Source: an uncultured Pseudomonadales bacterium
Lineage (GTDB): Bacteria > Patescibacteriota > Microgenomatia > UBA1400 > MFAQ01
Reading direction: 5' to 3'
DNA: 61,281 nt
Assembly (NCBI GenBank): GCA_964357975.1
Contig: CAYHNG010000007.1
Span: 1-61,281 of the forward strand
The translations under genes and the position numbers were made by a program. The notes beneath the pieces were generated by a model, which was not told the DNA's origin, did no database searches, and worked only from the letters and a program-made list of their open reading frames with translations. Of this stretch, positions 351 to 60,950 are shown piece by piece (the stretch's first letter is position 1; every line of letters begins with the position of its first letter).

Positions 351-1091
351 AGCGAGAATAATGCGATAAACGGCAAAAGAAGAAAAATTATGTTTTTTGA
401 CGAATTCGATAAAGAACTTAACGGCAAGTAGAGAGGAAAGGAAGGAAAAGAGACAACCAATTAGAAGGATGAAATATTCTTGAGGAGAGAAAAATAAACC
501 TGAATTTAAGAGATCAAACCCGGTGGCGACAAGCATGGTGGGAATGGCGAGAAAAAAGGAAAACTCAACAGCCTGTGAGCGAGAAAGTCCGGTGGAAAGT
601 CCGCCAATGATGGCTGCGGCCGAGCGGGAGACACCCGGGATAACAGAGATAGACTGAACAAGGCCGATAGTCAATAATCGCTTAAGAGAAAGATTCTCCA
701 GACGTCCTTGTCCTTTGTTGATTTTTTTCCAGTTATCAATTAAGAGGAGAAATAAACCACCAAAAAAAAGAGAGTAGACAGTGATAAACGGATTTTCAAA
801 AAGAACATTGCGAATGATTTTGTAGAGGAAAAAGCCAATAACCCCTGTAGGGATAAAAGCAATGAAGGCCTGTTCCCAGATTTTGATTTTGGTAAAAAGA
901 ATTTTTCGATATAACCAAACTACGGCCATAATGGCTGATAGCTGGATAACAATATCAAAGGTTTTAGAAAACTCGGTAGGGTTAATGGAAAGAAATTTTT
1001 GAACAAGAATAAGATGTCCGGTACTGGAAATGGGCAAGAACTCGGTAAGGCCTTCAACAAGGGAAAGAATGAGGGCTTGAATAATGGTCAT
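321..1091 (-). CDS. uppP: undecaprenyl-diphosphate phosphatase
   Basis: N-terminal LVEGLTEFLPISSTGHLIL is the hallmark UppP/BacA motif and the protein is polytopic. TATAAT (1100-1105, minus) lies 8 nt from the ATG. Confidence 0.9.
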   Translation of the reverse strand: MTIIQALILSLVEGLTEFLPISSTGHLILVQKFLSINPTEFSKTFDIVIQLSAIMAVVWLYRKILFTKIKIWEQAFIAFIPTGVIGFFLYKIIRNVLFENPFITVYSLFFGGLFLLLIDNWKKINKGQGRLENLSLKRLLTIGLVQSISVIPGVSRSAAAIIGGLSTGLSRSQAVEFSFFLAIPTMLVATGFDLLNSGLFFSPQEYFILLIGCLFSFLSSLLAVKFFIEFVKKHNFSSFAVYRIILALIVWITLKI

Positions 1092-1123
1092 GAGCTTCTA
1101 TTATACGGAGTGTGTAGTGTAAC

Positions 1124-2530
1124 ATGGAAGAGATGAATCTCACTCCTTTAAAAAGATCTGTTTTGGTAGACCCACCTTCTTTTGGAAGGATGGTGGGGCC
1201 GAGCTTTATTTTGTTAGGCTTGGGGTTAGGAATTGGAGAATTAATACTCTGGCCATACTTAACGGCGAGTTATGGATTGGGCATAATATGGGGAGCTGTA
1301 GCCGGAATTACAATGCAGCTGTTTATTAATTTGGAGATTAGTAGGTACACTTTGGTTACCGGAGAAAGTGTTTTTGTGGGTCTTTCCAGAAAATTGGGGA
1401 AAGTAATTCCAATTTGGTTTATTGTTTCCACAATATTGCCTTGGATGTGGCCAGGAATTGTGCTGTCAGGTTCCCGGTTGTTGACTGCAGGATTGGGCTG
1501 GGGCAGATCGGATTTAGTGGGAGTAGTTGCCTTGCTCTTAATTGGGGCAATACTGAGTTTGGGGCCGGTGCTTTACGGGACTCAAGAAAAGTTGGAGAAG
1601 GTACTACTAATCTTTGGGGTTCCGTTTGTATTGGGTGTTTCCTGGTGGCTGGCAACAAAAACCGGGGTAACAGACTTAGCGTTTGGTTTGATGGGAAAAG
1701 GGAAGGGTTATTGGTTTTTCCCGGTGGGGTTACAAGCATCGGCTTTTTTGGGGGCAATTGTGTTTTCCGGAGCCGGAGGAAACTTGAATCTGGGTCAATC
1801 GCAGAATATCAAGGAAAAAGGTTATGGCATGGGACACGGTTCCGGCAGGATTACGAGTCTGTTGACGGGTAGCAAAGAGGAAATTGGATTAACCGGAAAA
1901 GACTTTGAGGTAAATAGTCGAAGCCTGACAATCTTTACTAAATGGTGGAAGCTAACCAATTTGGAACAAGGCTTGATTTTTTGGACAATGGGGGTGATTA
2001 CAATGATTTCTTTGTCTCTCTTGGCTTACGAAACTATATACGGCAAGACCGGTGGACTGAGTGGTGTGGACTTTGTGATTGCGGAAGCCGGTATTATCGG
2101 CCAGCAGACATCCTGGCTAATAGGGAGAGCTTTTTTAATAGTGCTGGGGTTAATGTTGTTTGCGACACAACTTTCGGTGTTAGGAACAACCGGAAAGATT
2201 TTGGCGGAGAACTGGGCGGTCCTTAACTACAATAAGTTTGAGTCCGATAAATTACCCAAATATTTTTATGGACTGCTTTGGAGTCAAATTGGTCTGATGC
2301 TTGCTGTCTTGGCTTTAGGATTTAAAGAACCTCTGCAGTTGGTTCTCGTTAGCGCAGTGCTCAATGCTTGGACGATGGTAATTTACTCGATTTTGATTCT
2401 TTGGTTAAATACAACCTCACTTCACTCAAAGCTAAGACCAACGAAGTGGAGGCGAGGAGTAATAACCCTGACAATTGTTTTTCTAACTGTTTTTGGGTTG
2501 TTGACACTCAAACAAACTTTCGGGCGGTAA
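1124..2530 (+). CDS. Nramp-related (APC-superfamily) membrane transporter
   Basis: 468 aa with about 11 TM segments. The N-terminal GPSFILLGLGLGIGELILWPYL...QLFINLEISRYTLVTGESV is Nramp-like, but I could not see the canonical DPGN motif. Confidence 0.5.
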   Translation: MEEMNLTPLKRSVLVDPPSFGRMVGPSFILLGLGLGIGELILWPYLTASYGLGIIWGAVAGITMQLFINLEISRYTLVTGESVFVGLSRKLGKVIPIWFIVSTILPWMWPGIVLSGSRLLTAGLGWGRSDLVGVVALLLIGAILSLGPVLYGTQEKLEKVLLIFGVPFVLGVSWWLATKTGVTDLAFGLMGKGKGYWFFPVGLQASAFLGAIVFSGAGGNLNLGQSQNIKEKGYGMGHGSGRITSLLTGSKEEIGLTGKDFEVNSRSLTIFTKWWKLTNLEQGLIFWTMGVITMISLSLLAYETIYGKTGGLSGVDFVIAEAGIIGQQTSWLIGRAFLIVLGLMLFATQLSVLGTTGKILAENWAVLNYNKFESDKLPKYFYGLLWSQIGLMLAVLALGFKEPLQLVLVSAVLNAWTMVIYSILILWLNTTSLHSKLRPTKWRRGVITLTIVFLTVFGLLTLKQTFGR

Positions 2531-2541
2531 GACAGTCAGAT

Positions 2542-3251: not shown

Positions 3252-3908
3252 TCAGGATTTAGGCGTGGTTCCAAAAATTATAACCGGCGTTCCCGGATTA
3301 TCTTTGGTAGCGACCCCTGAACTTTTACCTTCCGGTAGTTCGGGATCGGCCCAGTTATAAAGAATACCGGCTTCGGAAGTTTTCATATTGACACAGCCAT
3401 GAGACATGGGGTGGCCAAAGTTATTGTGCCAATAGGTACCGTGTAGGGAAAAACCTCTAGAGGCCGGAATTTGGCTATTACCGAAAAACATAGTATAAGG
3501 GACATTTGGAAGATAGTAGTATGTGTGAAGAGCGGCAGATCCACCACTCATTTTGATAAAGCGAAATTTGTTGGCGATCCTGAAGGTGCCAGTAGGAGTC
3601 CGACCCCATTTGCCGGTAGAGACCAGAAAGTTATAGACAAGATTGTTGCCCTCGTAAGCGTAAAGCCTTTGGTTGGCAAGATCGACATAGATAATTTTTT
3701 CCCCAGTCGATTCTCCCAAGACTTTGGGTGGAAGTGGGACATTGGCCGTATAAGTAGGTATGCTGATGGGGGAGTTGTTAAAAACGGCACCCGATAGGGA
3801 AGGATCGTAATCCGGTTGAACCTCATAATGATTGGTCTGGTCCGTAGCTTTGATGATGAAGAAGGAAATGCCGATGACTATAAGGCTGGTAATGAACACT
3901 TTATTCAT
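3252..3908 (-). CDS. L,D-transpeptidase (YkuD domain), membrane anchored
   Basis: Catalytic motif HGTYWHNNFGHPMSHGCVNM (His...Ser-x-Gly-Cys) and an N-terminal TM. The extended -10 TGtTACACT ends 6 nt before the ATG. Confidence 0.85.
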   Translation of the reverse strand: MNKVFITSLIVIGISFFIIKATDQTNHYEVQPDYDPSLSGAVFNNSPISIPTYTANVPLPPKVLGESTGEKIIYVDLANQRLYAYEGNNLVYNFLVSTGKWGRTPTGTFRIANKFRFIKMSGGSAALHTYYYLPNVPYTMFFGNSQIPASRGFSLHGTYWHNNFGHPMSHGCVNMKTSEAGILYNWADPELPEGKSSGVATKDNPGTPVIIFGTTPKS

Positions 3909-3927
3909 AGAATTAGTGTAACAAATA

Positions 3928-4675: not shown

Positions 4676-5431
4676 TCAGGGAGTGGAAAAGGTATATTCG
4701 GAAGTAGTGACCGGTTTTTCGTCAGGATCGAGGATAATGACGTATTTAAAGAGAGTTCCGGGGGGAAGCTCTTCGACACTGAGAAGGTGGTTGGTTGTTG
4801 GAGTGGAGGAAACCGTAAAAATGTCAGAGAGGCCTTCGGTAAAACGAATCGAAGTTTTGACCTGTCGTTGAGTGGAGAAGGAAATAAGAACTTGAGTGGA
4901 GGAGATGGGGGTAATGAGGGGAGAGGTAAGGATCTCCGAAGCTTTGATCCGTGTCTCTTGTGTGGTGGTAGCCTGTTCCAAGATAGAAGGTAGCAAAGTA
5001 GCCAATGAAAAGATGACTAAGATAGGAATCAAGACAGCAAAAGCCGACTTTAAGGGAATCCCCCAAAGTTTGTGGTAATAAATCTTGGATTGTTGGGCTT
5101 GTTTAAAAAGATAAAGTTGGTTCTTGGGGAAAAAATCACCATGATTATTGGGGCAAGTAAAAACGGTGACTGTTTGAGGAACAGAATCATCCTTGATGCC
5201 CGACATTGGCTGACCGCATTTTGGGCAGACAGGGTTGGTTGCTGGGACAGCCTGACTTTTGGGAATGATAGAGTCAACATTTCTGGTGGTTTCAAGGGTC
5301 AGAAAGTTGGCGAGATAAGGGTCTATTAAATGCCCACCACAGTTAAGGCATTCTTCAATAGAGTGAAAGTGGCCATCGGAAGTTTCAATTTCTATAGCCG
5401 ATAGGGAATGGTGACAGTGGGGGCAGTCCAT
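4676..5431 (-). CDS. zinc-ribbon membrane protein, function unknown
   Basis: Two CxxC pairs sit at the N-terminus (CPHCHH...CLNCGG) and a second ribbon follows (CPKCG...CPNNHG). There is one TM and a C-terminal Ser/Thr-rich beta-type domain. I chose the start at 5431 because TAGAAT (5439-5444, minus) lies 7 nt upstream. The ORF itself opens at 5440. Confidence 0.45.
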   Translation of the reverse strand: MDCPHCHHSLSAIEIETSDGHFHSIEECLNCGGHLIDPYLANFLTLETTRNVDSIIPKSQAVPATNPVCPKCGQPMSGIKDDSVPQTVTVFTCPNNHGDFFPKNQLYLFKQAQQSKIYYHKLWGIPLKSAFAVLIPILVIFSLATLLPSILEQATTTQETRIKASEILTSPLITPISSTQVLISFSTQRQVKTSIRFTEGLSDIFTVSSTPTTNHLLSVEELPPGTLFKYVIILDPDEKPVTTSEYTFSTP

Positions 5432-5539
5432 ACAAACCATTCTAGCAAATAATGGCAGCTTAATTTCTATCTTGTTGGTTAGACTTCTGCACCTCTCATG
5501 GTTATTTCGATGGTTAGGTTCTGGTAAACTGAAAGATAT

Positions 5540-8138: not shown

Positions 8139-8159
8139 GTCAACAGATATAATTAGTTG

Positions 8160-8567
8160 ATGAACGATACAAAAAAGGTTGCGGTGTGCGTTATTTTTGA
8201 TGAAATGGGGAGAATATTACTTCAGAGGCCAAGTGCGTTAAAGAACTTTGGAGAGTACCAAATGGCTTGGTATCCGCCAACTGGACATGTAAAGGAGGGG
8301 GAGACGGTAGAACAAGCGCTAGTAAGAGAAGCGTATGAGGAATTGAATATTATTGTTAAGCCTGTTGAACTAATTTCTGAATGGCAGCAGGATATTCCTG
8401 GAGAGATTGCATATTGGTGGAAGTGTAAGATCGTAGGTGGGGAAATAATGGATGGGGAAGAAATTGGTGAGCACAGGTATTTTACTCTCGATGAGGCTAA
8501 AAAAATTAAAACGTGGCCGGCAGAGAAAAAGTTTTTTGAAGAATTCTTTTGGAATAATCGGATATAG
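8160..8567 (+). CDS. NUDIX hydrolase
   Basis: Nudix box GHVKEGETVEQALVREAYEELNI. TATAAT at 8148-8153 ends 6 nt before the ATG. Confidence 0.8.
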   Translation: MNDTKKVAVCVIFDEMGRILLQRPSALKNFGEYQMAWYPPTGHVKEGETVEQALVREAYEELNIIVKPVELISEWQQDIPGEIAYWWKCKIVGGEIMDGEEIGEHRYFTLDEAKKIKTWPAEKKFFEEFFWNNRI

Positions 8568-8575
8568 AATAACTT

Positions 8576-8992
8576 ATGGAGCAAAATGCGATTAAGGACT
8601 TGTTGGCGATGCAGTACGGAAATGCCGCGATAGAGGTAATAGACGTATCGGCGCCAGACTTAAAAAGAGTATTTTATCGAGAGGCCATTGAAGAACTAAT
8701 TCCTTTATTGGAGGCGGACAAACTAACTCTGGTAGCGGTAAGGCTGACCAAAGACTTTATACCATTGACTATGGAGTGGAGATTGGAAGCCGGTAGTGAA
8801 TCAAAGAATAATCTTGAGACGGGGGAAGCCGTTAAATATAAGTACCAAGTAGCCGGAAACTTTGAACCAATTTTTAGTGGACAGATGACAGTTTTAATGA
8901 AGGAATATTATGACCTGGAAACAGGGGACACGAGTTTTGGGGACACCGTGGCACAGTATAACAACGAAAAAGAGGACTGGGAGTATCAGTAG
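8576..8992 (+). CDS. hypothetical protein
   Basis: 138-aa acidic soluble ORF with no motif I recognise. TAGAAT at 8565-8570 ends 5 nt before the ATG. Confidence 0.5.
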   Translation: MEQNAIKDLLAMQYGNAAIEVIDVSAPDLKRVFYREAIEELIPLLEADKLTLVAVRLTKDFIPLTMEWRLEAGSESKNNLETGEAVKYKYQVAGNFEPIFSGQMTVLMKEYYDLETGDTSFGDTVAQYNNEKEDWEYQ

Positions 8993-9000: not shown

Positions 9001-9040
9001 TTGACCAAGCAATGATACTTGGAGTATAATAGTCCAAGTA
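9001..9040 (+). promoter_or_regulatory. suf operon promoter with an overlapping palindromic operator
   Basis: TTGACC (9001-9006), an 18-nt spacer, and TATAAT (9025-9030). The perfect inverted repeat TACTTGGA-N9-TCCAAGTA (9016-9040) brackets the -10. A further CCAAG half-site lies at 9005-9009. Confidence 0.6.
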
Positions 9041-9041
9041 T

Positions 9042-9428
9042 ATGTTTACACTCACCAAGAAGGCTGATTATGGGATGGCTTTGCTCTCTGTCCTGGCTCA
9101 AAGGGGGCGGGGTAGGCGTGTTTCACTAAAAGAACTATCTGAGTTAGGCATGCCTAGGGCCTTTATGGCGAAGATTGCTGGTTCTCTAGTAGAAGCTGGA
9201 ATCTTGAACTCGAAAGAGGGTAAGGGTGGTGGCTTTAGCCTAAACTACGAACCAAAGGAAGTACAGATACGAGAGGCTCTTGAGGCTATTGAAGGTGAAG
9301 TTGAGCCGGTCAGTTGCCAGGCTTGTCCGATGGTCGGGGGTTGCGGCCAACAAGGGTTTATGGGCAGGTTGACCGGAGAGATCGTGGGACTACTGGAGAA
9401 ATATACGTTGGAGGATTTAATAAAATAA
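9042..9428 (+). CDS. Rrf2 family transcriptional regulator (IscR/SufR-like, probable Fe-S sensor)
   Basis: N-terminal wHTH (MFTLTKKADYGMALLSVLAQ) and a C-terminal Cys cluster with CxxCx5C spacing (SCQACPMVGGC). It is the first gene of the suf operon. Confidence 0.85.
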   Translation: MFTLTKKADYGMALLSVLAQRGRGRRVSLKELSELGMPRAFMAKIAGSLVEAGILNSKEGKGGGFSLNYEPKEVQIREALEAIEGEVEPVSCQACPMVGGCGQQGFMGRLTGEIVGLLEKYTLEDLIK

Positions 9429-11589: not shown

Positions 11590-12072
11590 ATGAATATACA
11601 AAGATTTAAATTAGATAAGCCGGGAGAAATTGATTTGGTCGTTCCCTTTGTGTCTCCAGGCGAAGAGCGGGAGATCTTAGGTGTGGTGTCGGCCATGGAA
11701 GCGGGAGAATACAAGGTAAGAGTGGTGGCTGACCATGTGGCGACGAACACTTTTGGAAGAGTAGTCATTAAGGGCGCGGCCGCCAATGGTGCCCACATTA
11801 GCATTGATGGCTTAGTGAAGATTGGAAAAGAGGCGAGGAAGACTGACAGCTTTTTGGAGATGAGGATACTGCTATTGGACAAACAAAGCAGCGCAGTGGC
11901 CGAGCCCAAGCTGGAAATTGAGAACAACGATGTAAAAGCTTCGCACGCCGCGACGGTCGGGAAAATTGATGAAGATCAGCTTTTCTATTTGGCAAGTAGA
12001 GGAATAGAAAGAGACGAAGCTAAAAGATTGATAGTTGAGGGGTTCCTAAAAGAGGTGGAGGGGGTAAAATAA
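11590..12072 (+). CDS. sufD: SufD-like protein, C-terminal beta-helix portion only (160 aa)
   Basis: KASHAATVGKIDEDQLFYLASRGIERDEAKRLIVEGFL matches the SufB/SufD C-terminal block. The protein is about one third of normal SufD length. Confidence 0.7.
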   Translation: MNIQRFKLDKPGEIDLVVPFVSPGEEREILGVVSAMEAGEYKVRVVADHVATNTFGRVVIKGAAANGAHISIDGLVKIGKEARKTDSFLEMRILLLDKQSSAVAEPKLEIENNDVKASHAATVGKIDEDQLFYLASRGIERDEAKRLIVEGFLKEVEGVK

Positions 12073-12076
12073 GCAT

Positions 12077-13387
12077 ATGTTTGATGTTGAAAAAGTCAGA
12101 AATGATTTTCCGATTTTGAAAAGAAAGATTCACGGTCATGATTTGGTGTTTCTGGATAGCGGGGCGACCAGCCAGAAACCGGAAAGTGTGATCAAGTCTA
12201 TGGATGACTTTTATCGAAAGACGAACGCTAATATTCACAGAGGGGTGTATGAAATGTCGGTAGAGTCTACCCGTCTGGTGGATGAAGCCAGAAAAAAAGT
12301 AGCCAATTTTATCGGTGCCAGACCGGAAGAAATTATCTTTACCAGGAATGCCAGTGAAAGTATAAATCTGGTGATGTATTCATGGGGAAAGGATAATGTA
12401 AACGAGGGAGATGCGGTGCTGGTGAGCAGATTGGAACATCATTCAAATTTGGTACCTTGGCAGGAGCTTTGCCGAGAAAGAAAAGCAGAACTGAGGATTA
12501 TTGATGTGGATGGGGAGGGGAAATTGATAGAAAAAACTCAAAAAATCAAAAACTCAAAAATTCAAAACGAGGTTGTTAATGAGAAAGGGTTGAAAGTAAG
12601 GTTGGATAGCTTTGAGAGTCTAATAGCGGATGGAAAGGTCAAGTTGTTTTCGGTCACGGGGGCGTCGAACGTACTGGGAACTTTGCCGGATACAAAAGCA
12701 ATGATCAAAACGATAAAGAGTAAATCCCCAGAAGCTAAAGTCTTGATCGATGCATCTCAGATGGTACCTCATATGAAGGTGGATATAAAAAACTTGGGGG
12801 CAGATTTTGTAGCTTTTTCGGGACACAAGATGCTTGGACCGACAGGAACGGGAGTACTTTGGGGGAAGAAAGAAATACTGTCAAAGATGAGACCGTTTTT
12901 ATATGGTGGCGATATGATCGGAGAGGTCAAAATCACGGGGGCTACTTGGGCAGAGATACCGAGTAGGTTTGAAGCCGGAACGCCAGACATTGCCGGCATA
13001 ATTGGACTAGGGGCGGCAGTGGATTATCTGGAAAATCTGGGAATGGATAATGTTCGAGAACACGAAAAAGAACTAATAAAATATGCACTGGAGAAAATGG
13101 CTAAATTGGAAGAAGAGGGCTTGGTAAAGCTCTATGGTCCGAGAGATATTGAAGAGAGAGGAGGAGCACTGGCATTTAATGTGGTAAATGTACATCCACA
13201 TGATGCGGCCCAAATCTTGGATGGTTTTGGTATTGCGGTGCGGTCCGGTCAGCACTGTGCGGCACCACTGGTCACCAGCTTTGGAGTGCCGGCGATGGTA
13301 AGAGCGACTTTCTATGTGTACAACACCAAGAAAGAAATTGATTATCTTGTGAGTAAAATAAGAGAAGTACCAAAAGTATTTGCCTAA
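12077..13387 (+). CDS. sufS: cysteine desulfurase SufS (class II aminotransferase V)
   Basis: PLP-lysine block FSGHKMLGPTGTGVLWG and active-site region RSGQHCAAPL. It carries an extra roughly 22-25 aa segment encoded by a low-complexity repeat (see findings). Confidence 0.9.
   Translation: MFDVEKVRNDFPILKRKIHGHDLVFLDSGATSQKPESVIKSMDDFYRKTNANIHRGVYEMSVESTRLVDEARKKVANFIGARPEEIIFTRNASESINLVMYSWGKDNVNEGDAVLVSRLEHHSNLVPWQELCRERKAELRIIDVDGEGKLIEKTQKIKNSKIQNEVVNEKGLKVRLDSFESLIADGKVKLFSVTGASNVLGTLPDTKAMIKTIKSKSPEAKVLIDASQMVPHMKVDIKNLGADFVAFSGHKMLGPTGTGVLWGKKEILSKMRPFLYGGDMIGEVKITGATWAEIPSRFEAGTPDIAGIIGLGAAVDYLENLGMDNVREHEKELIKYALEKMAKLEEEGLVKLYGPRDIEERGGALAFNVVNVHPHDAAQILDGFGIAVRSGQHCAAPLVTSFGVPAMVRATFYVYNTKKEIDYLVSKIREVPKVFA
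12531..12568 (+). repeat. the same A-rich repeat inside the sufS coding sequence
   Basis: AAAAAACTCAAAAAATCAAAAACTCAAAAATTCAAAAC is translated in frame as KTQKIKNSKIQN. Confidence 0.7.
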
Positions 13388-15899: not shown

Positions 15900-15926
15900 T
15901 AAACTAAACGAGAGGAGGTGTAATGA

Positions 15927-44520: not shown

Positions 44521-44546
44521 ACCTTCTTACGTGTAGAATAAGGGCA

Positions 44547-45596: not shown

Positions 45597-45855
45597 TATC
45601 CAATCTCTCAAGAATGCGGGCGGTCTGGATGGTAATGAGAACAGCTACGGTGGTAATAAAGATGGCGTACACGAAAAGTGAGATAACTCCTGAGCCTTTG
45701 GCAAAGTAGGGTTTTACGAAGACCGAAACATACTCTTTGATAGCTTCGTTCCAGGCCAGAGCGGCGACCAGACCGAAAGAGGTTGAGACGAGATTGATAA
45801 TTTGGACAACAATCGCTTTGTGTAGGGCAGTGGTAGGCTTCATTTTGGTTTCCAT
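45583..45855 (-). CDS. small two-TM membrane protein
   Basis: The METKMKPTT... start is chosen because TATAAT (45862-67, minus) lies 6 nt upstream. The upstream part of the 179-aa ORF overlaps the nnrD start region and looks non-coding. Confidence 0.5.
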   Translation of the reverse strand: METKMKPTTALHKAIVVQIINLVSTSFGLVAALAWNEAIKEYVSVFVKPYFAKGSGVISLFVYAIFITTVAVLITIQTARILERLDTKKA

Positions 45856-45959
45856 AACTGTATTATATACGTGGAAGATAATGGCCAATCTCACCGATCG
45901 GTAGGATAGGTTGTTAGGGCAAACTCCGCAACGACTAAGATTGGTGTAAGATATACACG

Positions 45960-48115: not shown

Positions 48116-48138
48116 GTGGTGATTGATATACTACAAGT

Positions 48139-49848
48139 ATGTTGTTTAAAGACTTTGCCGGGTATTTGGAGAAACTGGAAAAGATTTCTTCCCGATTAGA
48201 AATCACCAAAGTGCTGGCGGAACTAATTGAGAAAATGTCTGTGGAAGAAACTGATAAAGGAGTGTATCTAACTTTGGGTCAACTGGGGCCGGACTTTGAT
48301 AATAAAGAGTTTAATATGGCAGTAAAGATGGTATTACGGAGTGTGGTAGATGGGACAGGTCTATCGGTTAAAGAGATAGAGCATAAATATAAAGCTAAGG
48401 GAGATGTGGGCTTGGTAGTTGAAGAATTGGATTTTAAAAAAGACTCAACCGTGAAATATTCGATATCTGAAGTTTTTGAGAAGCTGAAAATTATGGCTGA
48501 TGAGGGTGGTGGAGGAAGTCAAGAGCGAAAGGTGGCTAGACTGTCTGAGTTACTACTGACAACATCTAATTTGGAGAGAAAGTTTATTGCCAGAATGGTG
48601 ATAGGAAAGTTGCGTCTTGGCTTTTCGGAAAAAACTATTTTTGACGCATTGTCACAGATGACCAGTGGCGGAAAGACACTAAGAAAAGAGTTGGATAATG
48701 CTTTTCAAATTTACCCAGATCCAGGATATATTACTCAAATAGTAAAGGAAAAGGGAATGCTGGGACTGAAAAATATTAAGGTGAAGACGGGAGTACCGGT
48801 GGTTCCAGCCTTGTGCCAGAGATTGAATAACTACAAGGAGATAGTGGAGAAGATGGGGGTGGTGGCAATAGAGAGAAAGTACGACGGAACAAGAGTACAA
48901 ATCCACTTTAACAAAAAAAAGAACGAGGTTCGGACCTATACCAGAAATTTGGAAGAGTCCAGTCCGATGTTTCCGGAACTTCAGGATATGAAGGAATGGA
49001 TAAAGGCAGACGAAGTAATTCTGGACTGTGAGGCTGTGGGATATGAAAGAAAAACCAACAAAGTCCTACCATTTCAGATAACTATCACCAGAAAGAGAAA
49101 ACATGATGTGGCAGAAACGGCAAAATCTATTCCTCTAAGGTTCTTTGTGTTTGACATGTTGAGCTTGAATGGAGCCAGCCTAATTGAGAAACCCTATTTT
49201 GAAAGAAGAAAAGAGTTGGCAAAAATAATCAAAGCAAATGAAACGTTAGTGACTGACGACTATTTTAAAACCGATGATCCAACCGAAGTTCAGGAGATGC
49301 ATGATAAATTTTTGAAGGAAGGGTTTGAGGGAGCGGTAATCAAAATGTGGGAGGGAGAGTATTTGCCTGGTCGACAAGGTTGGAACTGGGTCAAAATCAA
49401 AGAGGCTGAAGGAACTTCGGGAAAACTGTCCGATACTTTGGACTTGGTAATTTTGGGATATTATTTGGGAAGGGGAAAACGATCAGACTTTGGAATAGGG
49501 GCGTTTCTGGTGGGTCTCACGAAGGAAGACAAATGGGTATCGATTGCGAAAATAGGAACAGGGCTGACCGATGTCGAGTTCCGAGATTTAAAGAAGAGTT
49601 TAGATGAGCATAAAACCAAAGAGAAGCCGGAAAACTATCTTGTTTCGGGCACTCTAATACCTGAAGTATGGGTGGAGCCCTTCGTTGTGGTAGAAGTGGC
49701 GGCTGATGAGATAACTAAGAGTCCTAACCACGCAGGGGGTCTGGCACTGAGGTTTCCCAGACTGGTGAAGTTCCGCGAGGATAAAGGACCCAAACAGGCC
49801 ACCACCTGGAAAGAAGTGGAGGAGATAGCCAAATTATCTACCGTCTAA
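48139..49848 (+). CDS. ATP-dependent DNA ligase, three-domain Lig1/archaeal type
   Basis: Motif I ERKYDGTRVQI (adenylation Lys), motifs EGAVIK and WVKIK, an N-terminal DNA-binding domain, and a C-terminal OB fold. The extended -10 TGaTATACT ends 6 nt before the ATG. Confidence 0.85.
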   Translation: MLFKDFAGYLEKLEKISSRLEITKVLAELIEKMSVEETDKGVYLTLGQLGPDFDNKEFNMAVKMVLRSVVDGTGLSVKEIEHKYKAKGDVGLVVEELDFKKDSTVKYSISEVFEKLKIMADEGGGGSQERKVARLSELLLTTSNLERKFIARMVIGKLRLGFSEKTIFDALSQMTSGGKTLRKELDNAFQIYPDPGYITQIVKEKGMLGLKNIKVKTGVPVVPALCQRLNNYKEIVEKMGVVAIERKYDGTRVQIHFNKKKNEVRTYTRNLEESSPMFPELQDMKEWIKADEVILDCEAVGYERKTNKVLPFQITITRKRKHDVAETAKSIPLRFFVFDMLSLNGASLIEKPYFERRKELAKIIKANETLVTDDYFKTDDPTEVQEMHDKFLKEGFEGAVIKMWEGEYLPGRQGWNWVKIKEAEGTSGKLSDTLDLVILGYYLGRGKRSDFGIGAFLVGLTKEDKWVSIAKIGTGLTDVEFRDLKKSLDEHKTKEKPENYLVSGTLIPEVWVEPFVVVEVAADEITKSPNHAGGLALRFPRLVKFREDKGPKQATTWKEVEEIAKLSTV

Positions 49849-49862
49849 GGTAAAATTAAGGA

Positions 49863-50504
49863 ATGGAAATACTTAAACTGATCTTGGACTTCTTTTTGCA
49901 TATAGATAAGAACTTGGTTTTGGTGATTGCTCAGTATGGGACAATGACATATCTGATTCTGTTCTTGGTGATATTCATGGAGACGGGATTGGTGGTTACT
50001 CCCTTTTTACCCGGTGACTCTTTGTTGTTTGCCGCAGGCGCCTTGTCGGCGATGGGGTCCTTTAATCTTTTGTTTCTTTATCTATTGATGGTGGCGGCGG
50101 CCGTACTCGGTGATTCCGTAAATTATTTTATCGGCGATAAACTTGAAAAAAAGATTTTTGATGGTCGAAGTAAGTTCTTTAAGAAAGAGTATTTGGAACA
50201 AGCGGAAGAGTTTTATCAAAGACATGGTGGAAAGGCAATCGTATTTGCCAGGTTTGTGCCAATAGTCAGAACTTTTGCACCGTTTGTGGCCGGGATTAGT
50301 AAGATGCATTATGGAAAATTTGTATTTTATAACGTCATTGGGGGTATCTCTTGGGTAACCATTTTTTTAATCGGCGGGTACGTGTTCGGTAACTTCCCTT
50401 TTGTGAAAGAGAATTTTCATTATGTGGCGCTGATGATTGTGTCAATTTCGGTAGTGCCAATTTTGATTGAGGTGGGAAAAAGAAAAAAAGAAAATAGATC
50501 CTGA
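49863..50504 (+). CDS. DedA family membrane protein
   Basis: Contains ETGLVVTPFLPGDSLLFAAGAL and RFVPIVRTFAPFVAG. Confidence 0.85.
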   Translation: MEILKLILDFFLHIDKNLVLVIAQYGTMTYLILFLVIFMETGLVVTPFLPGDSLLFAAGALSAMGSFNLLFLYLLMVAAAVLGDSVNYFIGDKLEKKIFDGRSKFFKKEYLEQAEEFYQRHGGKAIVFARFVPIVRTFAPFVAGISKMHYGKFVFYNVIGGISWVTIFLIGGYVFGNFPFVKENFHYVALMIVSISVVPILIEVGKRKKENRS

Positions 50505-50506: not shown

Positions 50507-50544
50507 AGAGATCTCGAATTTCAGATGCTAGTTGTGGTTAAATA
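50507..50544 (+). repeat. promoter-associated repeat module, copy 2
   Basis: Reads AGATCTCGaATTTCAGATGCtAGTTGTGGTTAAAT. The 3' part TTGTGGTTAAAT also occurs at 20649-20660. Confidence 0.6.
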
Positions 50545-50549
50545 GAGGT

Positions 50550-51515
50550 ATGCTTCTGGATATTTTATGGGGAATTGTTCTGATTCTGATTATGGTAATT
50601 TCTTCCGGAGCTACTGTAGACATATTCGAAAAGCTGGCTCATGACATTAGAGTAAACCGATTAATGTTGGCGACAATACTAGTCGGATTTTCAACTTCGT
50701 TGCCGGAGTTGTTTGTAGGACTAGCCGCTGCCTTTAGAGGGCAACCACAAATAGCATTGGGAGATATTGTAGGAGCTAATTTGGCAAATTTGAGCTGGAT
50801 TATTGGTGGCGCGGCTTTGCTGTTTGGTGCCGTTCCGGTAATTGGAGAGTATCTGCGGAAAGAGCTTTGGATCACAATGGGAATCGCGATGACGCCCTTC
50901 TTGTTGATGTTAGACGGTAAACTAACTAGATTGGATGGATTGGTGCTGGTGTTTTTGTACTTATTTTATATAAACAACTTAGTTCACCATGGTAGCTCGC
51001 CATTGAAGCATTTGAAGCTTTCCGGGAGGAAAATTGTCGTTCATCGATTACATACTCGAATGGAACCGGTAGTACAAACACTGAAGTTGGTGATGGGGTT
51101 GGGAGTTTTGGGGGTGAGCGCCTGGATGTTAGTGAACGTCGCTGTAAAAGTGTCCGGGTCTTTGGGGGTGAGCGCCTTTTTCATTGGGCTAATAATCTTG
51201 GCAATGGGAACGACCTTGCCGGAGTTAGTCCTGACTATCATGGCCTCCGAAAAAAGAGAGATATCCCTAATATTGGGAAATATTTTGGGTAGTGTAGTGG
51301 TAAATTCGACTTTGATATTAGGAATAATTGTTCTTGTTAGTCCAATTGGATATACAGACTCTCTTCAAAGGGGTATTTCGGGATTGTTTCTGATTATCAT
51401 TTTAGGTCTGTTCTGGTTATTCACCAAATCTAAACACAAACTGGAAAGATGGGAAGGGGCGGTTTTGGTAGGTATCTACGCTATGTTTGTAGGCATTCAG
51501 CTAATGCTGGCTTAG
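50550..51515 (+). CDS. Ca2+/cation (Na+) antiporter, CaCA/YrbG family
   Basis: The alpha-1 repeat is GDIVGANLANL and the alpha-2 repeat is GNILGSVVVNSTL. The ORF opens at TTG 50532, but TGgTTAAAT ends 6 nt before ATG 50550. Confidence 0.8.
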   Translation: MLLDILWGIVLILIMVISSGATVDIFEKLAHDIRVNRLMLATILVGFSTSLPELFVGLAAAFRGQPQIALGDIVGANLANLSWIIGGAALLFGAVPVIGEYLRKELWITMGIAMTPFLLMLDGKLTRLDGLVLVFLYLFYINNLVHHGSSPLKHLKLSGRKIVVHRLHTRMEPVVQTLKLVMGLGVLGVSAWMLVNVAVKVSGSLGVSAFFIGLIILAMGTTLPELVLTIMASEKREISLILGNILGSVVVNSTLILGIIVLVSPIGYTDSLQRGISGLFLIIILGLFWLFTKSKHKLERWEGAVLVGIYAMFVGIQLMLA

Positions 51516-52384
51516 GTCTGACTTTCTTCCAGGCTAAGAAGGGCGCGTATACGATCGGTGATTTTGGTCTTTTCCCCTTTTTTCTTAAAGGCTAGTTGGA
51601 TGAGTTTGGTAAGACCAGGAGTAATTCTGGTCTCTTCTTCGAGATATCCCCCTCCCATGGGATATTCTTTTTTTTGGTTTACCTTTTGATTGGTGAAAAA
51701 TTTTAGGTTAAGAACGGCGTATTTTTGAAGCATTTTTAATTTTCCGATTTTTCTAAAACGTCGAAAGGAATAAACAAAACGTGGTTCCCGAATTACTCCA
51801 AAAGTGTGTCCTTTGTGATGGCTACGATTGACGAACTCCGTATCTTCAGCAAATCCTACCTTTGGGTTGAAGCCTCCTATACTTTTAAAAATACTTTTTT
51901 TGCAGCCGATAAGCGCGCCATAGGCGGCTGGTTGATTGAGAAGTGAGGCGGTTTCAATCATGATATTCATATAACTCGCGATGGCTTTGTCTGAGGCAGT
52001 GACGGAGTCAGGAATGAACCAATTGGTGAAAAGGTCCAGTGGTTTAACATGTAGCTGGTACTTGACCCCTTCGAGAAAGTATTTGGGGAGTCTGTTGTCG
52101 GCATCGTTAAATAAAAGATACTTTCCGATTGCTTTATCTGCCCCCATGTTTCGTTGAATTGAAACATTACGAACGCTTGAGGAGAGAATTGTTAAAGAAG
52201 GAAGCTTTTTCTTAAACAAATTGGCTTTTTTAACGGTATTGTCTTTTGATTTACCATCAACAAGAATTACTTCAAAGTCTTGGGTGGTTTGTTTTGCCAA
52301 GTCATCGAGCAAAAGGGGGAGGTACTTCTCTTCGTTCAGGGCGGGGATAACTACTGAAAAAAAGGGTTTTTTGGTAACAATCAT
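51512..52384 (-). CDS. GT2-family glycosyltransferase
   Basis: Contains FSVVIPALNEEKYL, a DGKSKD-type nucleotide-binding region, and FNDADN (DxD). Confidence 0.8.
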   Translation of the reverse strand: MIVTKKPFFSVVIPALNEEKYLPLLLDDLAKQTTQDFEVILVDGKSKDNTVKKANLFKKKLPSLTILSSSVRNVSIQRNMGADKAIGKYLLFNDADNRLPKYFLEGVKYQLHVKPLDLFTNWFIPDSVTASDKAIASYMNIMIETASLLNQPAAYGALIGCKKSIFKSIGGFNPKVGFAEDTEFVNRSHHKGHTFGVIREPRFVYSFRRFRKIGKLKMLQKYAVLNLKFFTNQKVNQKKEYPMGGGYLEEETRITPGLTKLIQLAFKKKGEKTKITDRIRALLSLEESQT

Positions 52385-52944
52385 AAGTGGATTATAGAGG
52401 ATAGTTCGATAATAAAAGGGGTAAGCGCTAAAGTGCTGACCATATCAAGGAAATAGTGTTGTTTGGTGGTCAAGGTGGAGAAACTGATGGCCATGAGAAG
52501 AAAGTAGAAAATGGTCCAGAATTGTGGATAGAGTTGAGCTAAATAGAAACAAGAAACAAAGGAATGAAGCACATGTCCGCTGGGCAAGCCGTTACAATCA
52601 CGATCATGGCTGTATATCAAATTCAATAGCTGAAGATTACGACTTGATTGCGGTTTAATCTCCGGACGGCAAACACCGTTGGGCAAGACTTTCCAAACGA
52701 GGGTAGCAATAGCCGTTCCAGCAATTTGAGTGATTAAAAAGGGGATAGCAAAGCGTGAGTTCCAGATAAACAAAATTGAGGCAGGGACCAACAGATAATA
52801 AGAAATATAGATCCAGACTGTCCAGGGAATCAAGGAGATATGATCGTCTATTGGTAGATTTAACCTATATTTTGGTTTTTGTCGATTGAGGGGAAGATAT
52901 AATAAGATGGTTAACGCCAGTATGAGCAGAAGAAATGCTTTCAC
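52381..52944 (-). CDS. PAP2-superfamily phosphatase/phosphotransferase
   Basis: Contains the LPSGHVLHS and QHYFLDM motifs with six TM segments. GTG start with TATAAT 7 nt upstream. Overlaps the GT2 gene by 4 nt. Confidence 0.65.
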   Translation of the reverse strand: MKAFLLLILALTILLYLPLNRQKPKYRLNLPIDDHISLIPWTVWIYISYYLLVPASILFIWNSRFAIPFLITQIAGTAIATLVWKVLPNGVCRPEIKPQSSRNLQLLNLIYSHDRDCNGLPSGHVLHSFVSCFYLAQLYPQFWTIFYFLLMAISFSTLTTKQHYFLDMVSTLALTPFIIELSSIIHL

Positions 52945-52977
52945 AAAAAGGATTATAAGGGATAAAATGAAACATAA

Positions 52978-55610: not shown

Positions 55611-55630
55611 CAATGAGATAAGATGGTTGG

Positions 55631-56881
55631 GTGAATAGGAAATTTAATGTTGGATTATTTTTGGGGGGAGTTTGGGGAAGAGCTATTGTACTGTCAACTA
55701 TGTTGTTTTTTGTTTATTTGGGAGACGGGATCTTGAGTGATTGGGTGCCTTCTTTTATACAAGGCTCGGTAAACAGCTCATTGGTAATGGGACTGATAAT
55801 TTCGTTTTCATCGTTGGTCGGTTTTGGTGCCGACTTAATATTTCCTCAACTATTAAAGGGTATAAAAACAAGGAAAATATTACTCATGGCGATTGGGTCC
55901 AGCTTGGTATTTTGCGGAGTTCTTTTATGGAGCATTGCCTGGCCCTGGTTAGTTTTATTATTGATAGCGATGGGAATTTGGGGGATATATTATGAATTCT
56001 TAGGTTTTGGGGGACAGGCATTTGTGTCGGAATCCATACCGACGGCTTCCAGGTCCGGAGTTTGGGCGATAATGGGGGCTTTCAAAAGTCTTGCCTATTT
56101 TATTGGTCCGGTGATTGGTAGTTACCTGGCAATTAGTAAAGGTGATTATTGGGTAGTGGCAGTGGCGACGGTGTGTGTTGTTTTGGGGTATTTCTTTTGG
56201 ATGATTATGGGAAGGAACAAAAAAGAGGTGACCATAGAGACACCGTTCGAAAGAGTTAGCATTCTAAAGGAAATAAAATACTGGTGGACTTTGATAGAAC
56301 ACGTTTGGCCGGTGTTAGTAATTAGTCTGACGATGGGGGTAGTGGATGCCACCTACTGGACAACCGGAACGGTTTTTTCCGACAACTTGGCAAAACAAAC
56401 TTGGTGGGGTGGGCTATTCTTGCCTTTTTATACTTTACCAATGGTGTTTGTCGGCGTAGTAATTGCCAGATGGGGGGTGTATAGGGGAAAGAAGAAGTTA
56501 GCTGAAATTTTTATGTTAATTTCCGGTGTTCTGTTGGCCTTAGTTGGATTGAGCGACAGCGTGGCCGTGGTGTTAATTATCTCTTTGTTAGTGGGAACAA
56601 TGTTGTCATTTTCGTGGCCTCTAACAGATGCGGTATATTCGGATATTGTTAGCCGGATGGGAAGCGAGGGCAAACACATGGTGGGTTTGTCCGGATCAAC
56701 CATTAGTGTGGCATATATTATTGGTCCGGTGTTAGCAGGGTTGATTTCCCAGTTCGTGGGTGAAAAAAATACCTTTGTGGCTATGGGTGTGGTCATGGTA
56801 CTGGTTGCTTGCGTGTTGTTAGCTGTAACCCCTAAGAAGCTTAGATTACCCCAGTCAGAGATAAGGTCATGGGACGATTAA
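55631..56881 (+). CDS. MFS transporter
   Basis: 416 aa with 12 predicted TM segments. GTG start with TAAGAT ending 6 nt upstream. Confidence 0.7.
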   Translation: MNRKFNVGLFLGGVWGRAIVLSTMLFFVYLGDGILSDWVPSFIQGSVNSSLVMGLIISFSSLVGFGADLIFPQLLKGIKTRKILLMAIGSSLVFCGVLLWSIAWPWLVLLLIAMGIWGIYYEFLGFGGQAFVSESIPTASRSGVWAIMGAFKSLAYFIGPVIGSYLAISKGDYWVVAVATVCVVLGYFFWMIMGRNKKEVTIETPFERVSILKEIKYWWTLIEHVWPVLVISLTMGVVDATYWTTGTVFSDNLAKQTWWGGLFLPFYTLPMVFVGVVIARWGVYRGKKKLAEIFMLISGVLLALVGLSDSVAVVLIISLLVGTMLSFSWPLTDAVYSDIVSRMGSEGKHMVGLSGSTISVAYIIGPVLAGLISQFVGEKNTFVAMGVVMVLVACVLLAVTPKKLRLPQSEIRSWDD

Positions 56882-57464: not shown

Positions 57465-57494
57465 TTGACAGGTGTATACCACAGGGGGTATATT
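57465..57494 (+). promoter_or_regulatory. promoter plus palindromic operator of the CsoR-family gene
   Basis: TTGACA (57465-70), an 18-nt spacer, and TATATT (57489-94). The inverted repeat TATACC-N6-GGTATA (57475-57492) fills the spacer and overlaps the first four bases of the -10. The -10 ends 6 nt before ATG 57501. Confidence 0.6.
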
Positions 57495-57500
57495 GATAGA

Positions 57501-57728
57501 ATGACAATAGAAGAAAAAAAGAAATTGCAGGTAGCCCTGAAAAGAATTCAGGGTCAGGTGGGGGGAATTGAGAAAATGATATCAGAGGATAAACAGTGCG
57601 AGGCGGTGGTAACTCAAGTGGTAGCCTCGATGAGCTCTCTAAAAAGCGTAGCCAAAGCTTTGTTGGCTGACGCTATGGATAGTTGTAACAAAGAAGAATA
57701 TGCTAAGTTATTAAAGAGATTTCTTTAA
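57501..57728 (+). CDS. CsoR/RcnR/CstR-family metal- or thiol-sensing repressor
   Basis: LKRIQGQVGGIEKMISEDKQCEAVVTQV...LLADAMDSC matches the DUF156 fold. The ORF opens at TTG 57465, which is itself the -35 hexamer, so ATG 57501 is preferred. Confidence 0.8.
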   Translation: MTIEEKKKLQVALKRIQGQVGGIEKMISEDKQCEAVVTQVVASMSSLKSVAKALLADAMDSCNKEEYAKLLKRFL

Positions 57729-57751
57729 TCATTAATTAATATAAACAAACA

Positions 57752-58075
57752 ATGTCTGTAGCAAAATTTACCGACCAAAACTTTAACGATGAGGTTCTTA
57801 AGTCTGAGACCCCCGTATTAGTAGACTTTTATGCCGATTGGTGTGGGCCATGTCGCTTGGTATCTCCTATTGTGGATGAGCTAGCAAACACTTATGAAGG
57901 TAAAATTAAAGTGGGAAAGGTGGACGTGGATGCCAACTCCAAAGTAGCGGGGGACTATGGTGTCATGAGTATTCCAACAGTAATTCTTTATCAAAAGGGC
58001 AAAGAGGTAACGAGACAAGTAGGTTTTGGAGGCAAGGATGCCTATATCCAAATGATTGAGAAGATTATTAAGTAA
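57752..58075 (+). CDS. trxA: thioredoxin
   Basis: WCGPC active site, 107 aa. Confidence 0.95.
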   Translation: MSVAKFTDQNFNDEVLKSETPVLVDFYADWCGPCRLVSPIVDELANTYEGKIKVGKVDVDANSKVAGDYGVMSIPTVILYQKGKEVTRQVGFGGKDAYIQMIEKIIK

Positions 58076-59209: not shown

Positions 59210-59211
59210 GC

Positions 59212-59814
59212 ATGACCGATGTGTTACTAACGGATGATGATCTGAAAAACAGGGTAAGTAAGTTGATGATTGAGTTCATGAATAATGTAGATGACGGGTC
59301 GGATAACGGTGAGTTGCAAGACGTAGTAAACAGTAAGGATGAAATAGTGGGGACTCTACCGAGAGGGGTTATTTGGGATAATAACTTACAAGCAAACACC
59401 CGTGTTGTAAACATATTTGTCGTCAATAGTAGCAAGAAGATATTGCTTCCTGTCAGATCCTTGAAGAAAAGATATCTGCCAGGAGGTTTTGATTTTTCTT
59501 GTGGTGAGAATTTAAAGGCGGGAGAGGAGTATGAACAAGCTGCAATCAGAGGGCTGAGAGAGGAGCTGGGGTTAACTGGTTTGATTGTGGGTTTGGTTGG
59601 TTCTTTTAAACCAAGTCTCGACAATGGTTTCTTTTGTTTTGGTAAGGTTTATAAAACTGAAGTGGGTGCTGGGGAGGTAGTAAAGATTAATCATGACGAA
59701 GTAGCTGAGATTCGATGGGTTAGCCAACAAGAAGTTAAAAAGATGCTGATTGATCAGAAAGAAAAATTCAAAAGAGACTACAAATCAATTTTTGAATTGG
59801 CTTTTAATTCTTAG
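59212..59814 (+). CDS. NUDIX hydrolase
   Basis: Nudix box GENLKAGEEYEQAAIRGLREELGL. Confidence 0.75.
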   Translation: MTDVLLTDDDLKNRVSKLMIEFMNNVDDGSDNGELQDVVNSKDEIVGTLPRGVIWDNNLQANTRVVNIFVVNSSKKILLPVRSLKKRYLPGGFDFSCGENLKAGEEYEQAAIRGLREELGLTGLIVGLVGSFKPSLDNGFFCFGKVYKTEVGAGEVVKINHDEVAEIRWVSQQEVKKMLIDQKEKFKRDYKSIFELAFNS

Positions 59815-60852
59815 GATTCTAGCAACCGATTGATCTAGTTTTGTTTTATCGAGAGCTCCGCTGTTGTAGGCGGTGGTTATTTTTTGAAAAAGGGGCTGAG
59901 GGTCGATTCCCTGTAAAAGAATCATATCTTCGCCGGCACGGAGACTTTCGATGGCGGCTTGGTCTTGAGGAATACCGACACCAGACATGGAAAGAGAGTC
60001 GGTCAGAAAGATTAGGTCGTTTCCGCTAGGAAGGGCAGATCTCAGTTTATCTAAAACGATATAACTGATACTGGCCGGCTTTTTATCCAGCTCCGGGATG
60101 ACGATATGCCCAATCATAACAATTCTGGCGCCATTGTTGATAGTGTCAATAAAGGGAATCAAGTCAAAATTTTTTATTTCTTCCCAACTGTAGTTAAGAG
60201 ACCCAGTTTTCTTGTGAGTATCGGAGTCGACTCGTCCGTGACCGGGAAGATGTTTTATGACTCCGACTATGCCTTGCATCTGTAGAGCCTTAAGGTATTC
60301 GGAGGCTTTGACGCCATCAATGGTAGGGTCATCGGAGAAGGACCGATTCTCGATCACAGGATTGTTTTTGGTGATGTCGGCTACAGGAGCAAGGTCTACG
60401 TTGAAACCTAAATCTTTAAGAGTTCTCCCGTGTTGCTCACCCCAGTAGGACACCGTATTCTCCTCTGCCATCTTTCGCGGTGAAGGAGAATCGTCTTTAA
60501 TCCTGGCGACTTTGCCGCCTTCTTGATCCACCATAATCCACGAAAGCGGGTCTTGTTTGTGAATTGATTGGTTGTTGCTAAAAATATCATTTTCGGTTAG
60601 GCCTTCGGTGTTGCTTTTTGAGTAGATGATATTGCCGCAACTCTCTAAGACCTTGAGTGCTTTTTTGAGTGTTTTTCCGTCGTAACTACAGACAAAGGTT
60701 TGACGAATCTTTTCCTCCAAAGTCATCCCGGATATTTGCTCAGTGATTGGATCAATGGCGGGCAGGCTACTGGTGGAGATAAAAGAGGGCAGTTTTCCGC
60801 CAAAAAACAGATTGGCAATGAGGGTAATAATTATTACCATCGGTTTGGGCAT
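59785..60852 (-). CDS. nagZ: GH3 beta-N-acetylhexosaminidase (NagZ-like), membrane/secreted
   Basis: Contains MVDQEGGKVARI, KHLPGHG, and a D-H dyad region. The start at MPKPMVIIITL (signal/TM) is supported by TATAGT (60860-65, minus) 7 nt upstream. The ORF opens at 60993. Confidence 0.75.
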   Translation of the reverse strand: MPKPMVIIITLIANLFFGGKLPSFISTSSLPAIDPITEQISGMTLEEKIRQTFVCSYDGKTLKKALKVLESCGNIIYSKSNTEGLTENDIFSNNQSIHKQDPLSWIMVDQEGGKVARIKDDSPSPRKMAEENTVSYWGEQHGRTLKDLGFNVDLAPVADITKNNPVIENRSFSDDPTIDGVKASEYLKALQMQGIVGVIKHLPGHGRVDSDTHKKTGSLNYSWEEIKNFDLIPFIDTINNGARIVMIGHIVIPELDKKPASISYIVLDKLRSALPSGNDLIFLTDSLSMSGVGIPQDQAAIESLRAGEDMILLQGIDPQPLFQKITTAYNSGALDKTKLDQSVARILRIKSQFKN

Positions 60853-60950
60853 GAATTTAACTATACTAGAAAGGGTTGCCAGAGTGCCATTGCACGATTG
60901 ACTTATAGTGTTATAATTAGGTATTCTGAACATGAAAAATGGAGGTGTAT

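Follow-up and report, generated by a model that had tools for sequence, protein, structure and literature searches.

We analysed a 61,281-nt stretch of DNA, called the window here, which is an entire 61-kb contig (C7) of the genome of an ultra-small groundwater bacterium from the Candidatus Collierbacteria and in which many genes are preceded by a TAnnnT-type hexamer that ends about six nucleotides (nt) before the start codon. These hexamers are very probably -10 boxes placed for transcription to start at or next to the start codon, and the mRNAs most likely begin at the AUG. This leaderless reading had been proposed in an original prediction for this DNA, and it is supported here by the spacing of the hexamer, its promoter features, the purine of the start codon and conservation. 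From the motif, its spacing, its conservation and its gene context, which are observed directly, we infer the transcription start site (TSS) and the translation of the leaderless form. The assembly has 1.14 Mb in 31 contigs and is 97% complete. The genome is ~1.1 Mb with 43% GC, ~89% of it is coding, and the intergenic gaps are tiny. Relatives of its RecF with 75-90% identity are all from Candidatus Collierbacteria, which belong to the Microgenomates in the candidate phyla radiation (CPR), also called Patescibacteria.

We propose the following arrangement. The genome's housekeeping sigma-70 promoter would have the hexamers as its -10 elements. Their consensus is TGnTAnAAT, positions -17 to -14 often read T-R-T-G as in Gram-positive bacteria, and the -35 is weak. 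With the box ending 6 (5-8) nt before ATG or GTG, the first base transcribed by RNA polymerase would be the A or G of the start codon, and the resulting mRNA would have no 5' untranslated region and no space for a Shine-Dalgarno (SD) sequence. The ribosome together with initiator tRNA would then bind the 5'-terminal AUG or GUG. A second group, at least 10% of the genes, would use the same promoter placed 26-65 nt upstream, together with a GGAG-type SD (spacer 5-7) that pairs with an intact anti-SD. Genes that abut or overlap their upstream neighbour lack both signals, and their translation probably relies on coupling or re-initiation.

Spacing of the hexamer across the genome

Genes were called by a simple dicodon score, and the first ATG, GTG or TTG of each open reading frame (ORF) was taken as its start. 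Upstream signals were ignored in this step, which avoids circularity. The spacer is the number of nucleotides between the end of the hexamer and the start codon, and 1156 gene starts were used genome-wide. TAnnnT ends at spacer 6 in 178 of these blindly chosen starts; it was found in 68, 63 and 55 genes at spacers 5, 7 and 8, and in ~22-37 genes at other offsets. In 300 dinucleotide shuffles of the 40 upstream bases, the spacer-6 count was 32.4 ± 5.6 (z = 26). The original prediction had named neighbouring offsets and dinucleotide shuffles as controls, and the spacer-6 excess holds in both. TGnTAnnnT at spacer 6 was found 58 times against ~3, and TAnAAT 81 times against ~4. Hexamers of the form TA[TC]nnT, which cannot be an in-frame stop, also peak there (70 vs ~15). 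ORFs of at least 150 amino acids gave the same picture as the full gene set, and internal in-frame ATGs (n = 5210) showed no TAnnnT peak. Within the window, a box at spacer 5-8 precedes 23 genes, compared with 8.0 ± 2.6 in dinucleotide shuffles. A spacer of 6 corresponds to the distance from a -10 box to the TSS, and thus the peak supports promoters that start at the start codon.

We also counted strict matches by gene context, with decoy offsets given in brackets. Divergent genes have TAnnnT at spacer 5-8 in 39% (10-16%) and an SD in 16% (3%). Behind a same-strand gap of 10-49 nt the corresponding values are 42% (10%) and 8% (5%), and behind a gap of at least 50 nt they are 28% (11%) and 24% (4-5%). 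Where the same-strand gap is below 10 nt, the values are 15% (6-9%) for TAnnnT and 5% (5%) for an SD. Net of chance, leaderless-type starts amount to ~19% of all genes, and to about one quarter to one third of the genes with their own upstream space.

Promoter character of the motif

A positional logo, which the original prediction had suggested as a check, gave the profile of an extended -10 promoter. It has T in 51% at -17, T in 46% at -15, G in 51% at -14 and T in 51% at -1, and the base at -1 is a pyrimidine in ~70%. TGn accompanies 32% of the spacer-6 hexamers, compared with 6.5% of all genomic TAnnnT. The spacer-6 signal is present at 17.7% of ATG and 20% of GTG starts and at 4% of TTG starts, in keeping with a TSS at the purine with which the start codon begins. 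The genome encodes a single canonical group-1 sigma-70 in which regions 2, 3 and 4 are present. We also considered a strong -35 element and rejected it; only 25 of 347 boxes have at least a 5/6 match to TTGACA, against 6 in a shifted control.

The same motif is found in positions that are not connected with a start codon. Of the 47 tRNA genes, 20 have a TA[AGT]AAT whose last base lies 8-11 nt ahead of the mature 5' end. tRNA genes are never translated and yet carry the motif, which is therefore transcriptional. The 5' leaders of these 20 pre-tRNAs would be only ~1-4 nt long, that is, the tRNAs would be nearly leaderless. Furthermore, SD-led genes carry the same motif 26-65 nt upstream, and rpoD, the sigma factor gene, is an example with TGtTAAAAT-AGGAG-N8-ATG. 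These sequence features support the hexamer as a promoter element rather than a signal on the mRNA.

The window has one such tRNA locus. In the tRNA-Ile gene (35198-35276), TATAAAAT ends 10 nt upstream. ARAGORN assigns this tRNA the anticodon TAT, which is unusual for bacteria, and the gene adjoins a tyrosine recombinase-type region. Bacteria normally read AUA via a lysidine-modified CAT tRNA.

Conservation and placement of the start codons

A complete genome of the same genus (G002) was compared over 920 kb, with 532 ortholog pairs anchored at their start codons. Of the 101 pairs in which this genome has TAnnnT at spacer 6, 89 (88%) have it at that position in G002 as well, compared with roughly 45% (range 8% to 76%) at other offsets. 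Per-base identity in these 101 pairs is 54% at -40 to -18, 57-74% in the spacer and 85% at -1, and in the box it is 89% at T-12, 96% at A-11 and 93% at T-7. From codon 2 on, identity is 90% at codon positions 1 and 2 and 67% at position 3, a pattern that is absent upstream. Selection on the box is thus as strong as on amino-acid-changing positions, and the codon pattern from codon 2 on places the onset of coding constraint at the proposed ATG. Among the TAnnnT sites in the original prediction, 17 have an ortholog in G002, and all of these keep the box at spacer 5-8, and the flanks around the kept boxes are often unrelated, for example at the starts 48139, 17730 and 19604.

Five starts had been moved downstream in the original prediction, and each shift agrees with independent features of the genes. 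The ends of NCBIfam profiles fit a glyoxylate reductase from 20667 instead of 20649, an antiporter from 50550 instead of 50532, and a CsoR-like repressor from 57501 instead of 57465. For the shift from 5440 to 5431, G002 has the upstream ATG in another reading frame. For the shift from 60993 to 60852, the 47-codon extension is unconserved and has an in-frame stop in G002. NCBIfam profiles also align from residue 1-3 for UppP, RpiB, RecF, DNA ligase and DedA, and in the ORF list made here one further start, 8157, is better placed at 8160. Taken from the sequence comparison, profile ends and codon-periodic conservation support the proposed start codons as the true translation starts.

Shine-Dalgarno use and ribosome components

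The original prediction regarded the boxes as leaving no room for an SD. This would hold for genes with a box 5-8 nt from the start, but the genome as a whole has a mixed regime and is not free of SD sequences. GGAG at spacer 5-7 was found in 109 of 669 spaced genes, and SD matches number 158 against ~42 in decoys. SD-led genes make up ~10% of all genes and are concentrated among those with at least 50 nt of upstream spacer. When any start within 50 codons was allowed, no added SD excess was found. It had also been proposed that internal or overlapping genes use an SD, in contrast to genes with a box. The four examples given for this are present, with the GGAGG of sufS ~16 nt off, but they are not general; genome-wide, the SD frequency is at the decoy level (5% vs 5%) where a same-strand neighbour is less than 10 nt away. 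The 320 genes that lie less than 10 nt behind a same-strand gene have no SD excess and little -10 excess, and their upstream regions are simply rich in A. This points to coupling or re-initiation without an SD for such genes.

The 16S rRNA of this genome keeps its anti-SD. A 3' fragment of ~620 nt of the gene is found outside the window, where contig C15 ends (23980-24603), and the 3' tail, which the original prediction had wanted to see checked, has the canonical anti-SD and reads GGATCACCTCCTTTCT. A search of the genome with the Rfam small-subunit model gave no match, a false negative with the 16S fragment at the contig end. The canonical tail is found in relatives from the same genus, family and order as well. 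An SD-free genome that arose through anti-SD loss is thus ruled out. Anti-SD has been lost in part of Parcubacteria, and bS21 is often lost in Collierbacteria (PMC9297842). In this genome bS1 and IF3 are present and bS21 was not found; bS21 was also not found in four bacterial control genomes, among them those of the leaderless-rich Deinococcus and Corynebacterium.

Alternative explanations

Several observations weigh against promoters that start at the start codon. The gene calls come from a crude dicodon caller, the -35 elements are mostly poor, many boxes lie 7-26 nt from an upstream same-strand gene, and three of the 22 boxes in the original prediction are without an essential base. Furthermore, ~125 of the 346 strict TAnnnT matches at spacers 5-8, about a third, are expected by chance, and thus individual sites are not all certain. 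Because boxes lie close behind same-strand genes, read-through from these genes must also produce transcripts that carry SD-less AUGs in their interior. It is conceivable, although unlikely, that the promoters are real while the TSS lies a few bases earlier or an upstream promoter dominates, which would give very short (1-6 nt) or ordinary leaders. The many boxes directly behind a same-strand gene are consistent with this, and so is the tail of the spacer distribution, since TAnAAT is present in 22, 26, 13, 9, 11 and 11 genes at spacers 7-12 against a background of ~4; cases at spacer 9-11 in the window are 5540, 9042, 27858, 52978 and 57752. However, the mode is exactly 6, the pyrimidine at -1 is conserved, the start is a purine and TTG starts are excluded, all of which argue for a TSS on the start codon. 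In addition, leaders of up to 5 nt are normally treated as leaderless anyway.

The hexamer also occupies the position of a ribosome-binding site, and the upstream regions of internal genes are A-rich and without an SD. It might therefore be read as an AT-rich non-Shine-Dalgarno ribosome-binding motif on the mRNA, as in the Bacteroidetes (group B of GeneMarkS-2), but we regard this as very improbable. tRNA genes have the motif and so do SD-led genes, 26-65 nt upstream; its TGn extension and invariant T, A and T positions are those of a -10 box, and the motif is absent before TTG starts. It is also weak before abutting genes, whereas the group B motif precedes all genes (PMC6028130). An artefact of AT-rich intergenic DNA, of in-frame stops (TAA/TAG) near ORF starts and of starts picked to fit has next to no probability. 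A period-3 ripple from in-frame stops is indeed visible at spacers 0, 3, 9 and 12, and the original prediction had shifted five starts to fit. Such an artefact is refuted by the blind choice of starts in our tests, by the peak of TA[TC]nnT (70 vs 15), which cannot be a stop, by the offset and shuffle controls (z = 26), by the ratio of 1.06x in E. coli, and by the conservation of the motif in G002. We therefore retain -10 boxes that direct transcription to the start codon as the most probable explanation.

Breadth across Patescibacteria

The breadth of the arrangement was examined with the pattern TGNTANNNT-N6-ATG, that is TGnTAnnnT-N6-ATG, against a composition-matched backward control. This genome has 81 matches against 22 in the control, G002 of the same genus has 76 against 17, a genome of the same family (G013) has 58 against 12, and one of the same order (G017) has 86 against 12, so that these relatives are 4.5-7x over control. 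E. coli K-12 has 72 against 68 (1.06x). Over 201 Patescibacteria genomes the total is 10,186 against 4,487 with a median ratio of 2.4, and the ratio is at least 2x in 127 of the 201 genomes and in 66 of 98 families. A version of the pattern with spacer 12 gave ~1x. Genomes with a canonical anti-SD (45 genomes of 32 families) have a median ratio of 2.6.

One family (f25; nine genomes of 0.9-1.6 Mb) has no excess of the pattern (412 vs 434), and neither bS21 nor a canonical anti-SD match was found in it. The start signals of this family must differ from those of the rest of the phylum. Loss of bS21 was considered as a cause of the signal and rejected, since 166 of the 201 Patescibacteria have bS21, including the genomes with the strongest signal, and f25 has neither bS21 nor the signal. 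We lean towards leaderless initiation from extended -10 promoters being a phylum-wide trait of Patescibacteria/CPR, possibly an ancestral one. If this is true, the CPR would be the largest bacterial clade of the leaderless kind. It would also appear that extensive use of leaderless mRNAs preceded the loss of anti-SD in some Parcubacteria and did not result from that loss.

Sites in the window

All 22 hexamers of the original prediction are present with the start codons and spacer lengths it gave. They had been described as TAnnnT-type boxes, often with a TGn extension; 19 of the 22 fit TAnnnT, whereas TTAAAT (20655, 50538) and TATAAA (57740) miss A-11 or T-7, and eight of the 19 carry TGn. A consensus -35 is present at only one of the 22 sites (start 57501). 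The genes had also been called operon-leading, but many of them sit just 7-26 nt behind a same-strand gene, and the promoter then lies inside the 3' end of that gene.

The start codon at the following sites is ATG unless GTG is given. On the plus strand, the Nudix hydrolase gene (8148-8162) has TATAAT at spacer 6, 21 nt behind the upstream gene, and the gene at 8576 (8565-8578) has TAGAAT at spacer 5, the TAG of which is the stop codon of the upstream gene. TGn-TATAGT precedes rpiB (16580-16595, spacer 7), to which the NCBIfam profile aligns from residue 1, and a LOG/TIGR00730 family gene (17718-17732, spacer 6), where G002 has the same box and spacer with a different flank. The -10 hexamers at 8565-8570 and 17718-17723 thus overlap the stop of the preceding gene (TAG of TAGAAT and TAG within TATAGT), and at both places a single 6-mer would serve as the end of one gene and as the promoter of the following one. 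A ribokinase-family sugar kinase (19592-19606) has TGn-TAGAAT at spacer 6; it is divergent, and G002 keeps the hexamer with a changed spacer sequence. The gene at 27915 (27903-27917) is also divergent, with TGn-TACTAT at spacer 6 before a GTG, and the gene at 32491 (32480-32493) lies behind a 412-nt spacer with TGn-TATAGT at spacer 5; both are kept in G002. TAGAAT precedes a SAM methyltransferase (43888-43902, spacer 6) and recF (44534-44549, spacer 7; profile from residue 2), and G002 has TAAAAT at both. The ATP-dependent DNA ligase (48127-48141) has TGn-TATACT at spacer 6, and the 18 nt before its ATG are identical in G002 beside an unrelated flank. The enzyme that this bacterial genome encodes here (48139-49848) is of the Lig type of archaea and eukaryotes (TIGR00574, 381 bits). 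DedA (49851-49865; profile from residue 1) has TAAAAT at spacer 6 and TACAAT in G002, and an MFS transporter (55619-55633) has TAAGAT at spacer 6 before a GTG and TAAAAT in G002. A CsoR/RcnR-type repressor (57489-57503) is preceded by TTGACA-18-TATATT at spacer 6. At the thioredoxin gene (57737-57754), TATAAA (57740-57745, spacer 6) is without T-7, and TAATAT at spacer 9 is an alternative that would leave a 3-nt leader.

The two TTAAAT boxes of the original prediction belong to the motif TGTGGTTAAAT. They precede the glyoxylate reductase (20655-20669) and a Ca/Na antiporter (50538-50552), in both cases as TGg-TTAAAT at spacer 6, which is not TAnnnT, and profile ends support the starts 20667 and 50550. 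This 11-mer has three copies in the genome, all on the window contig (7447-7457, 20650-20660 and 50533-50543). Every copy is at a gene start beside TTG, and both copies that were tested are kept in G002. The 11-mer could represent either a binding site or a weak extended -10 (TGgTTAAAT).

On the minus strand, uppP (1089-1105) is divergent and has TATAAT at spacer 8. The gene at 3908 (3906-3920) has TGn-TACACT at spacer 6 and TACAAT in G002, and the gene at 5431 (5429-5444) has TGn-TAGAAT at spacer 7, with an ATG within the box (5440) that is out of frame in G002. TATAAT is found before a DUF5654 protein of 90 amino acids (45853-45867, spacer 6) and before a PAP2 phosphatase (52942-52957, spacer 7, GTG), the latter with identical box and spacer in G002. 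A beta-N-acetylhexosaminidase-like gene with a weak NagZ match (60850-60865) has TATAGT at spacer 7.

Four further sites were absent from the original prediction. These are sufS (12065-12079, plus; TAAAAT, spacer 6), which also has GGAGG ~16 nt from its ATG, the divergent partner of the gene at 19604 (19538-19553, minus; TAAAAT, spacer 7), NAD(P)H-hydrate dehydratase (45947-45962, plus; TAAGAT, spacer 7), and a gene that shares 4 nt with the gene upstream (52382-52396, minus; TATAAT, spacer 6). The suf operon promoter (9004-9044, plus) is TTGACC-18-TATAAT, 11 nt before the ATG of an Rrf2 gene, and would give a near-leaderless mRNA with a 4-5 nt leader. Contrasting starts with an SD are GGAGGTG before ATG 15927 (15914-15929, plus), AAAGGAG 7 nt before GTG 29157 (29155-29170, minus), and ATG 60951 (60897-60953, plus), where a TTGACT / TGt-TATAAT promoter would give a ~27-nt leader with the SD GGAGGTG.

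The base composition of the window is also skewed. The GC skew, (G-C)/(G+C), is very strong at ~+0.19 to +0.33 across the whole contig. It reaches +/-0.34 on other contigs, and the G-rich strand carries most genes.

Significance and comparison with known systems

The CPR account for much of bacterial diversity, their ribosomes are pared down, and the start of transcription and translation in them is essentially unstudied. In the literature searched, we found no paper that reports leaderless starts in CPR/Patescibacteria, only incidental mentions. If about one third of CPR transcription units are leaderless, this would help to explain how genes are packed with almost no intergenic DNA. It would also change start calling in thousands of assembled genomes, offer TGnTAnAAT-N6-ATG as a simple design rule for constructs in the few cultivable CPR strains, and add a deep-branching lineage to the debate on ancestral leaderless initiation.

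The arrangement is that of group C of GeneMarkS-2, in which a Pribnow box lies 6-8 nt from the starts of first genes and other genes use an SD; group C comprises 90% of Actinobacteria and 97% of Deinococcus-Thermus (PMC6028130). The mechanism is thus well known, and the lineage is new. Group C Actinobacteria (Mycobacterium tuberculosis, M. smegmatis, Streptomyces and Corynebacterium) resemble this genome in having the Pribnow box 6-8 nt from first-gene starts, leaderless as well as SD-led starts and an intact anti-SD, and roughly 25-50% of their transcripts are leaderless. Mycobacteria use GTG besides ATG at leaderless starts, as seems to be the case here. In contrast to these Actinobacteria, the genome studied here belongs to Patescibacteria/CPR, is 1.1 Mb with 43% GC, has an extended -10 (TGn / TRTG) with little -35, and often has its boxes squeezed into the final codons of the gene ahead. 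For Deinococcus deserti / D. radiodurans, 167 leaderless genes among 262 mapped ones are cited in PMC6028130. As here, a large fraction of their genes has a TAnnnT-type box ~6-7 nt ahead of the start, and bS21 was not found in D. radiodurans in our control panel. The leaderless share is lower here than in Deinococcus, and the lack of bS21 is not tied to the signal across Patescibacteria.

Other systems are alike in part. In archaeal leaderless transcription (GeneMarkS-2 group D), the mRNA begins at the start codon and internal genes use other signals, as would be the case here, but archaea have a TATA box ~26 nt upstream whereas this genome has a bacterial sigma-70 -10 box at ~10 nt. The group B motif of Bacteroidetes is likewise AT-rich, near start codons and without GGAGG. 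However, it acts on the mRNA and precedes all genes including internal ones, whereas the motif here has the anatomy of a -10 box, stands before tRNA genes and is weak before abutting genes. Bacillus and other Gram-positive bacteria have an extended -10, the '-16 region' TRTG, in which T-17, R-16, T-15 and G-14 lie upstream of TAnAAT and reduce the dependence on a -35. The same four positions are found upstream of TAnAAT here. In Firmicutes, TRTG promoters normally drive leadered, SD-dependent mRNAs, whereas in this genome such promoters probably also drive mRNAs that begin at the start codon.

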